NCBI GenBank assembly: GCA_044892525.1
Contig: CM097885.1
Coordinates: 28,212,001-28,276,000 of the forward strand
Direction: 5' to 3'
DNA: 64,000 bases
DNA from: Schmidtea polychroa
Taxonomy: Eukaryota
Shown: positions 11,646-12,781 of the stretch, in pieces
Position numbering within the stretch: position 1 is the stretch's first letter
How the letters are laid out: each line of letters begins with the position of its first letter
Position numbers and translations under genes: made by a program
The notes under the pieces: model-generated
Seen by the model: the letters and a program-made list of their open reading frames with translations, nothing else
Told to the model about the DNA's origin: nothing
Databases searched by the model: none

Positions 11646-12781
11646 TTGACATAGAATTGTTTATCCTTGCCGACCATTTTAGTTTTCAATATCTTTTGAA
11701 TTCTAAATACTTTTGGGGGAGGAATAACTTGTAATTCTTGCTCATAAAACTTTCCTTGTACAATATTGTTATCATAATCACTGATGACATACATTACAGG
11801 ATTCTGACTAGTATTTATTTTTGAAATTACAAAGACTTCATCACTCCAATTTGTATCGAAATTTTTAATAAATGGTGATGCACTAATTTTACTAATTCTA
11901 ACATGGTCACCGACTTTATATTTAGGTTTTGCAATTTTTACAGATTTCTTAGAATAGATTGTTTTTGATGTAATATCAACCGGTCTCAATCTATTAAGTC
12001 CTCGATGTGATGAATGATTATAACTTGTTATTATTTTCGGTAAAGCATTTACCCATTTTTTATTACCTTGATGCACGAACAATTTCTTTAATCTATCTCT
12101 CAATGTTCGATTAAATCTTTCAACATGGGCAGCTTTGTATTGAGAATGTACCGAGTAGTGATTTATTTTCAGTTTATCGAGGATTTGCTTGACTTTACTG
12201 TTGTAGAATTCTTTACCTAAAATAATAATAATAATAATAATAATAATAATAATAATAATAATAATAATAATAATAATAATAATAATAATAATAATAATAA
12301 TAATAATAATAATAATAATAATAATAATAATAATAATAATAATAATAATAATAATAATAATAATAATAATAATAATAATAATAATAATAATACCTAAATC
12401 TGTTTGCAAGTTATTAGGATGTCCATCTTTAAATAAATCATTAACAGCTTTAGACATTTCATCTGCAGATTTTGCCTTGACGGGTATTGCTCGGGCAAAC
12501 CGATTGAATACATCAATACATGTTAAAATATATTTATACCCATTGTTAATTTTCGAATAAGGTATCATCTCCATCAAATCCATTTGCCATAAATCATTTA
12601 TTCCATATGTTTTATATACTCTTGTTGGGAATCGTTTCTGCATTGGTTTGTTCAAACTGTACGCAAGCTGGTCTGATAACCACTTCTGGGTTTCTTTTTT
12701 CGAATTCGGAACTCTTTTGTTTAATTTTGCCACTCCACCGAAACCGGCTTCGTCTTCTGGGTTCGTCCAAATCTTCTCCAT
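11591..12781 (-). CDS. Retroviral-like integrase with C-terminal chromodomain; intron 12217-12393
   Basis: WQMDL, QTDLG|KEF after splicing, VERFNRTL, YVKWHGY chromodomain. Confidence 0.93.
   Translation of the reverse strand: MEKIWTNPEDEAGFGGVAKLNKRVPNSKKETQKWLSDQLAYSLNKPMQKRFPTRVYKTYGINDLWQMDLMEMIPYSKINNGYKYILTCIDVFNRFARAIPVKAKSADEMSKAVNDLFKDGHPNNLQTDLGIIIIIIIIIIIIIIIIIIIIIIIIIIIIIIIIIIIIIIIIIIIIIIIIIIIIIIIIILGKEFYNSKVKQILDKLKINHYSVHSQYKAAHVERFNRTLRDRLKKLFVHQGNKKWVNALPKIITSYNHSSHRGLNRLRPVDITSKTIYSKKSVKIAKPKYKVGDHVRISKISASPFIKNFDTNWSDEVFVISKINTSQNPVMYVISDYDNNIVQGKFYEQELQVIPPPKVFRIQKILKTKMVGKDKQFYVKWHGYQNPSWISEKDLVK

Follow-up and report, generated by a model that had tools for sequence, protein, structure and literature searches.

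The 64-kb stretch of DNA analysed here (the window) comes from an AT-rich genome of animal type and contains two Maverick elements, which are located as follows:

1988–17910, Mav1, a Maverick with terminal inverted repeats and a 6-bp target duplication
28581–48618, Mav2, a Maverick with terminal inverted repeats and a 6-bp target duplication

In both elements the 6-bp target duplications are perfect and the terminal repeats near-identical, with 1 of 348 compared nt differing between the arms of one element and 10 of 794 nt in the other, and this near-identity indicates that both insertions are young. Genes typical of the Maverick/Polinton elements are present, with Pfam matches to rve (below the curated cut-off), Pox_A32 and Peptidase_C5, the protease having been scanned in Mav2 only, and the integrases have both profile and fold matches to retroviral integrases. 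For the long open reading frames (ORFs) of 1357 and 1323 aa Pfam gave only Endonuclease_7; by eye they show motifs of family B and are candidate polymerases of this type. Several further ORFs of 120–406 aa are without a Pfam match. In sequencing run X3 the summed depth was ~3 × 10^5, while rare contigs stood at ~40; this points to a very large number of copies of the element, although summed depth is not the same as copy number. As context only, passages of a preprint report Maverick expansion in Dugesia (10.64898/2025.12.11.693146).

Mav1 and Mav2 share ~89% identity across the integrase–ATPase module and ~66% in the polymerase (3130–7203 versus 31393–35364), and their terminal repeats are different; on sequence comparison, this contrast is one of module swapping. 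The Mav1 polymerase carries an in-frame poly-Asn tract of ~70 residues (6813–7030, − strand), which belongs to the same repeat family as the integrase segment described below, read from the opposite strand, while the Mav2 polymerase has an unrelated Lys/Ile/Asp-rich tract at this position. Both Mavericks encode a short TBP-like protein (14097–14561 and 43723–44160, + strand), the copies of which stand at dS 1.56, far above the core genes, and a Bcl-2-like gene (16300–16826 and 46077–46589, − strand; weak Pfam match in Mav1) with a 44–46-nt phase-0 candidate intron in both elements. A 141-nt unit is repeated four times in Mav2 (37007–37575, − strand), each unit seemingly comprising one short intron and one exon, and a polymerase-like fragment that is 72% complementary to the Mav1 polymerase lies inverted between the elements (23535–24088).

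The integrase genes of both elements are divided by a segment that consists almost entirely of a triplet repeat, and their parts are:

12394–12781, − strand, upstream integrase piece of Mav1, 129 codons plus one base, with the first two catalytic Asp residues (codon of the second, 12398–12400)
12217–12393, − strand, candidate GT–AG intron of the Mav1 integrase, phase 1, GT(ATT)57TTAG, 177 nt
12221–12391, − strand, perfect (ATT)57 body in Mav1, with no G or C and an RNA predicted to be unstructured
12391–12398, − strand, 8-nt direct repeat, copy 1, over the donor junction in Mav1
12214–12221, − strand, 8-nt direct repeat, copy 2, over the acceptor junction in Mav1
11591–12216, − strand, downstream integrase piece of Mav1, with the catalytic Glu and a C-terminal chromodomain-like part
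41226–42383, − strand, Mav2 integrase gene including its intron
41855–41995, − strand, counterpart intron in the Mav2 integrase, GT(ATT)45TTAG, 141 nt

The original prediction had described this segment as an intron of the form GT(ATT)n..TTAG, 177 and 141 nt long, with TTTAG|GTA at both junctions; the first statement was confirmed letter by letter and the second in both copies. The ATT runs are uninterrupted, with exactly 57 units in Mav1 and exactly 45 in Mav2, and the segment lies in phase 1, within a Gly codon two residues past the second catalytic Asp of the rve-type integrase. As had been foreseen for a retained intron, the unspliced frames remain open at this point and read through 57 Ile in Mav1 and 45 Ile in Mav2. 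That the segment is in frame and stop-free is correct for both copies, but the significance that had been attached to the lack of stops falls away, because an ATT repeat is automatically stop-free, each of its three frames (ATT, TTA or TAT) encoding an amino acid; no single substitution in ATT yields a stop either. More telling are its ends: among 23 perfect runs of at least six ATT units in the window, only two, both of them the integrase segments, have GT directly before and YAG directly after, and a GT/YAG-bounded repeat at the matching codon in two diverged copies is beyond chance. For the (AUU)n RNA, less structure is predicted than for 200 of 200 shuffles (z +6.7), and the segment had no match in Rfam.

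Relatives of the integrase were examined as the best 120 of 302 homologues that a search with the downstream piece gave. Relatives without the intron, which had been proposed as a check, proved to be the rule: the D-x-G-x-E-F motif is unbroken in 117 among these best 120 of 302, and of the remaining three, one starts inside the motif and two are chimeric models without it. Poly-Ile at the motif was found in none of the best 120 of 302. The distance from Asp to Glu is 34 in 114 of the best 120 of 302, versus 93 in Mav1 and 81 in Mav2, and the excess of 59 and 47 equals 177/3 and 141/3, i.e. the segment lengths in codons. A natural intron-less relative (P0005), modelled from a 90-sequence alignment with a pLDDT of 89.7 (40 for a single-sequence fold), has foamy-virus intasomes as its best structural matches, and places the insertion site in the loop right after strand 124–126, amid the invariant residues D128, G130, E132 and F133. 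The retained insert would reach a 19-residue Kyte–Doolittle value of 4.5 versus at most 3.0 in the best 120 of 302 homologues, and a run of 45–57 Ile in the catalytic loop would have no near parallel in the family. Mav2-type integrases (P0002 residue 90; 41226–42383) carry Asn at column D90, the Asp of which is invariant in 90 of 90 aligned relatives; the Asn is common to P0176 and P0195 and so marks a subfamily.

Comparison of the Mav1 and Mav2 integrases, with the two pieces compared separately, gave a dN/dS of 0.18 over 336 codons (dS 0.19, p 10^-10), with 0.17 upstream and 0.18 downstream of the segment and neither a stop nor a frameshift. Six neighbouring core genes range from 0.05 to 0.32, and the integrase values fall within this range. 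Such values in the flanks would be hard to reconcile with a dead integrase gene; the selection signal could partly predate the repeat, or stem from recombination with intron-less copies, and Mav1 and Mav2 could both have been integrated in trans.

The window contains other candidate introns with which the segment can be compared, among them:

8129–8175, − strand, ATT-rich candidate intron, 47 nt, phase 1, Mav1 polymerase leader
8019–8065, − strand, degenerate-ATT candidate intron, 47 nt, phase 1, Mav1 polymerase leader
14738–14784, + strand, candidate intron, 47 nt, phase 1, in an accessory gene, used as control intron for the sequencing runs
15935–15975, + strand, candidate intron, 41 nt, phase 1, ending TTATTATTTAG

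GT–AG candidates with open frames on both sides occur in three accessory genes per copy and three times in the Mav1 polymerase leader, so that the host spliceosome seems to be used by these elements. Three small phase-1 leader exons (7260–8230, − strand) lie upstream of the Mav1 polymerase ORF, and the leader introns comprise two of 47 nt that are ATT-rich and one of 693 nt filled with tandem repeats. The short candidate introns of the elements measure 41–49 nt, and the comparison introns overall, all of them predicted, 41–693 nt (n = 11). A host HMG-box gene (60850–61981, − strand), perhaps flatworm-like in its sequence, has three candidate introns of 164, 44 and 42 nt, with the donors GTTAGT and GTATAA in the short ones (42–44 nt). 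Considering nine local introns, which include three orthologous pairs, four end in TTTAG, six start with GTA and two do both, while CTRAY occurs in none of the nine and YTRAY is absent from three. The five short Mav1 introns contain 26 ATT-dimer hexamers, compared to 8.8 in dinucleotide shuffles (1 of 1000 reaches 26) and only 3 hexamers of the opposite-strand unit, a test that was chosen after the sequences had been seen; two short host introns are not ATT-enriched (4 versus 2.9 hexamers). Two of the five Mav1 introns have the look of degenerate ATT runs. Among 13 local candidate introns, the two in the integrases are the only ones that are both in frame and stop-free.

The segment has the GT 5′ end and YAG 3′ end of U2-type introns, its acceptor TTTTAG recurs in two local candidates, and its size and splice sites are within the local range. 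Beyond +3 its donor, GTATTA, is a weak one, and the other junction of the segment offers AG|GTAAAG as a second, seemingly stronger site. The original prediction had noted the lack of a recognisable branch point, and indeed neither CTRAY nor YTRAY occurs in the segment; CTRAY is equally absent from all nine local candidates and YTRAY from three of them. Every AUU unit provides U-n-A-y, which matches the human branch-point consensus yUnAy (PMC2367711) at four of its five positions. Among 23 listed sequencing runs none is recorded as RNA; four were compared with the upstream side and with the control intron at 14738–14784, and of these X9 reads through the control intron and is probably DNA. Splicing guided by RNA structure was considered and rejected, the RNA folding worse than all 200 shuffles. 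The integrase segment is very probably spliced, and the intron reading of the original prediction gains indirect support from the relatives, the dN/dS values, the intact target duplications and the other short GT–AG candidates.

Two alternatives would remove the intron altogether. It is extremely unlikely that an assembler inserted or inflated the ATT repeat: long microsatellite lengths are error-prone, and the exact numbers of units may be off, but the same site and ends are found in copies that lie 30 kb apart and differ at 28 of the 388 nt of the upstream piece. In addition, a Mav2-type protein from an independent assembly (P0195) enters an Ile-rich tail at the same residue, and on the junction side of a Mav2-type contig from run X13, 39 letters are left unaligned, as many as a contig ending inside the repeat would have. 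Very unlikely, too, is an unspliced segment, whether as a microsatellite that killed the integrase, leaving the subfamilies to be moved by the integrase of other copies, or as a tolerated poly-Ile loop. In the Mav1 polymerase the opposite-strand repeat is indeed read in frame, as poly-Asn, and the apparent great abundance of the element in the run data makes help in trans plausible; yet a shared lethal insertion should leave the flanks drifting, whereas they stand at 0.17 and 0.18 at a dS of ~0.19 with their frames intact, a random insertion would not end exactly at GT and TTTTAG as only 2 of 23 runs do, and no insertion in the motif was seen among the homologues and loci examined.

With regard to its origin, the segment is somewhat more probably than otherwise an ordinary host-spliced intron, the body of which would have been extended by replication slippage, starting from a short intron rich in ATT. 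The ancestral site would have held an AT-rich intron of 41–49 nt, like the other introns of the element, which slippage homogenised and lengthened, and above the minimum intron size the length of the repeat would drift almost neutrally. AG|GTATTA would serve the host major spliceosome as donor and TTTTAG as its acceptor, and the degenerate branch point would be any A that lies in the unstructured (AUU)n ~20–35 nt before the 3′ end; with the intron removed, the integrase would have the length normal for its family. Transcripts left unspliced would evade nonsense-mediated decay and yield a poly-Ile protein of no use, presumably as a tolerated cost rather than a control device.

The original prediction had instead derived the intron from duplication of a proto-splice site followed by repeat expansion, a route that is possible but not favoured: both ends are shared by 2 of 9 local introns, a single site pre-exists in relatives, and the Mav1 introns are ATT-rich. 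In the intron-less relatives L002 and L003 the single TTTAGGTA site is already present. Since the exon letters at the junction are fixed by conserved codons and TTTAG and GTA ends are common locally, the direct repeat is not diagnostic of duplication, and the smallest local intron, at 41 nt, is far longer than a duplication of 6 nt. The ATT-rich short introns of Mav1, together with a sister lineage that seemingly ends at the same site, fit slippage in an older intron better than duplication and expansion. This lineage came from a search for short proteins (19 hits), among which P0179, P0181 and P0196 (a cluster mate of P0179 that comes from another source) end 2–5 residues past the same Leu, and their last residues are compatible with a G|GTAA donor followed by an early stop. 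They are 74–77% identical over the upstream piece and together form a supported clade; one clade uniting them with Mav1 and Mav2 was not rejected (p-AU 0.51) but is not shown by the free tree (7% of 200 bootstrap trees), in an analysis that kept 35 of 70 rows, with near-copies thinned and P0176 dropped. The sister lineage appears, from its protein ends, to be broken at the same site, and these ends may be contig ends or frameshifts. Among 49 truncated homologues, five end within six residues of the Asp, a weak excess.

The DNA of the P0179/P0181 lineage was sought in viral, metagenome and genome contigs and was not found in them. Most scans of the viral contigs yielded no relative and one gave eight distant loci, all unbroken, and their sole pattern hit, L011, was set aside as an unrelated gene; in the metagenome contigs there were ten loci, and those that cover the site are unbroken there, and in the genome contigs three, two of which were seen to be unbroken. 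P0176, in which a Mav2-type upstream piece is fused to the last 14 residues, was rejected as a case of the intron and read as a deletion or misassembly. P0182 and P0191, which end near the motif, were not counted as broken at the site, the sister of P0182 (P0025) being unbroken.

The length of the repeat bears on a further claim of the original prediction, that of a length-tunable splicing switch for integration, for which pure ATT arrays in the terminal repeats serve as controls:

2647–2712, + strand, (ATT)22 array, left terminal repeat of Mav1, control
17044–17151, − strand, matching (ATT)36 array, right terminal repeat of Mav1, control

The terminal arrays measure 22 versus 36 units in Mav1 and 31 versus 33 in Mav2. 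Those of Mav1 are 14 units apart while the compared flanks differ at only 1 of 348 nt, and drift of this size implies that 57 versus 45 units is ordinary drift or assembly error; the switch therefore found no support.

Among the remaining explanations for the intron, we consider rather unlikely a constitutive intron born in one step, through a staggered break or short duplication at AG|GT with ATT filler possibly taken from the terminal-repeat arrays of the element, which is the origin of the original prediction in a stronger form. It would account for the 8-nt direct repeat that flanks the body, for the single site of intron-less relatives and for a body made of the repeat alone; the pure ATT arrays of the element are possible templates, and new introns in Drosophila and Daphnia are flanked by direct repeats of at least 8 bp in the portions of PMC2809761 and PMC4202315 that concern us. 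Against this origin, the same two ends are found in 2 of 9 local introns without any duplication, the local introns are already ATT-rich, the sister lineage appears to be broken at the same place with non-identical letters, and a gradual path through 6–40 nt would probably leave unspliceable residues in the catalytic loop. A regulated switch is distinctly unlikely: retention would vary by tissue or repeat length, the retained transcript would escape decay, and a poly-Ile integrase would misfold or poison multimers and so limit integration. It can appeal to the two integrase introns being the only in-frame, stop-free ones among the 13 local candidates, to the weak donor with the stronger-looking AG|GTAAAG at the other junction, to the maximal hydrophobicity of the insert, and to the P element of Drosophila as a precedent for control of a transposase by splicing. 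However, freedom from stops comes automatically with ATT and a length of 3n has a prior of about one in three, drift is equally large in the terminal-repeat arrays, both lengths are found in cleanly integrated copies, and the RNA has no length-sensing structure (z +6.7). The escape of retained transcripts from decay is a precondition for a brake and not evidence of one. Quite improbable, likewise, is the more elaborate proposal of a minimal intron that would carry no information but GU and UUAG around unstructured (AUU)n, in which the AUU units would be the intron-defining signal, and in-frame, decay-proof retention, with its dead poly-Ile integrase, a brake that host splicing puts on a very abundant virus-like element and that slippage possibly tunes.

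The integrase segment is probably best seen as one of the ordinary AT-rich introns of the element, taken to an extreme by slippage. If it is spliced, it would be about the simplest possible natural intron, with no G or C in its body, no structure and no canonical branch point, and would offer a test of the minimal needs of the spliceosome and of intron-length evolution, with a natural length series over many copies. Core genes of some animal Mavericks would then depend on host splicing, and gene finders would misread such genes as poly-Ile proteins or miss them. Regulated retention, if true, would matter much more, and no finding points to regulation.

Where splicing gates a transposase the model is the P element of Drosophila, in which retention of the third intron gives a truncated repressor by way of a stop codon; the Mav segment, by comparison, is without a stop. 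Exitrons, as described in PMC4484396, resemble it in being in-frame, stop-free GT–AG segments inside a continuous frame, but they are coding sequence that is optionally removed, whereas the retained Mav product is predicted to be non-functional; identity with exitrons was rejected, the segment being absent from 117 among the best 120 of 302 relatives and forming a homopolymer in the catalytic loop rather than ancestral coding sequence. Introners, which occur in dinoflagellate Maverick-like elements according to parts of PMC11957031, are mobile families at unrelated sites; the segment differs in that GT and AG bound the repeat at two orthologous sites only (2 of the 23 runs in the window), and it was not identified as an introner within the 64 kb. 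Ginger1 is characterised in sections of PMC2836005 as a cut-and-paste element with an intron-bearing transposase of the DDE integrase type, whose introns are ordinary ones. Common to Ginger1, the dinoflagellate elements and Mav1/Mav2 are introns, candidate ones in the present case, in genes of DDE integrase type or in Maverick-like elements. A search of the literature, with most subscription papers, Repbase reports and supplements outside its scope, found nothing on a microsatellite-only intron in a Maverick integrase, and the accessible parts of PMC10748475, PMC6431247 and PMC11125864 gave nothing on microsatellite-only introns.

The new introns of Drosophila and Daphnia, as far as excerpts of PMC2809761 and PMC4202315 describe them, are like the segment in their AT-rich body, weak donor and short direct repeat over both junctions, and the gain set from these sources includes a repeat expansion that became an intron, CG42594 (poly-Q). 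They differ in that the segment is in frame and stop-free, consists of one uninterrupted triplet and lies in the gene of a mobile element; the same excerpts give in-frame stop-free introns as under-represented in Drosophila (PMC2809761) and rare among new Daphnia introns, with 2 of 27 of the 3n introns (PMC4202315). Mav1 and Mav2 share with the Maverick/Polinton elements, in the account that the consulted part of Barreat and Katzourakis (2021; PMC8097293) gives of them, the integrase with its chromodomain-like end, the packaging ATPase, the adenain-type protease, a large ORF for the polymerase, the terminal inverted repeats as well as a target duplication of 6 bp. The same text describes intact vertebrate elements as having no introns; unlike these, the elements studied here have candidate introns in the integrase, the polymerase leader and the accessory genes, and the one in the integrase is a pure repeat.
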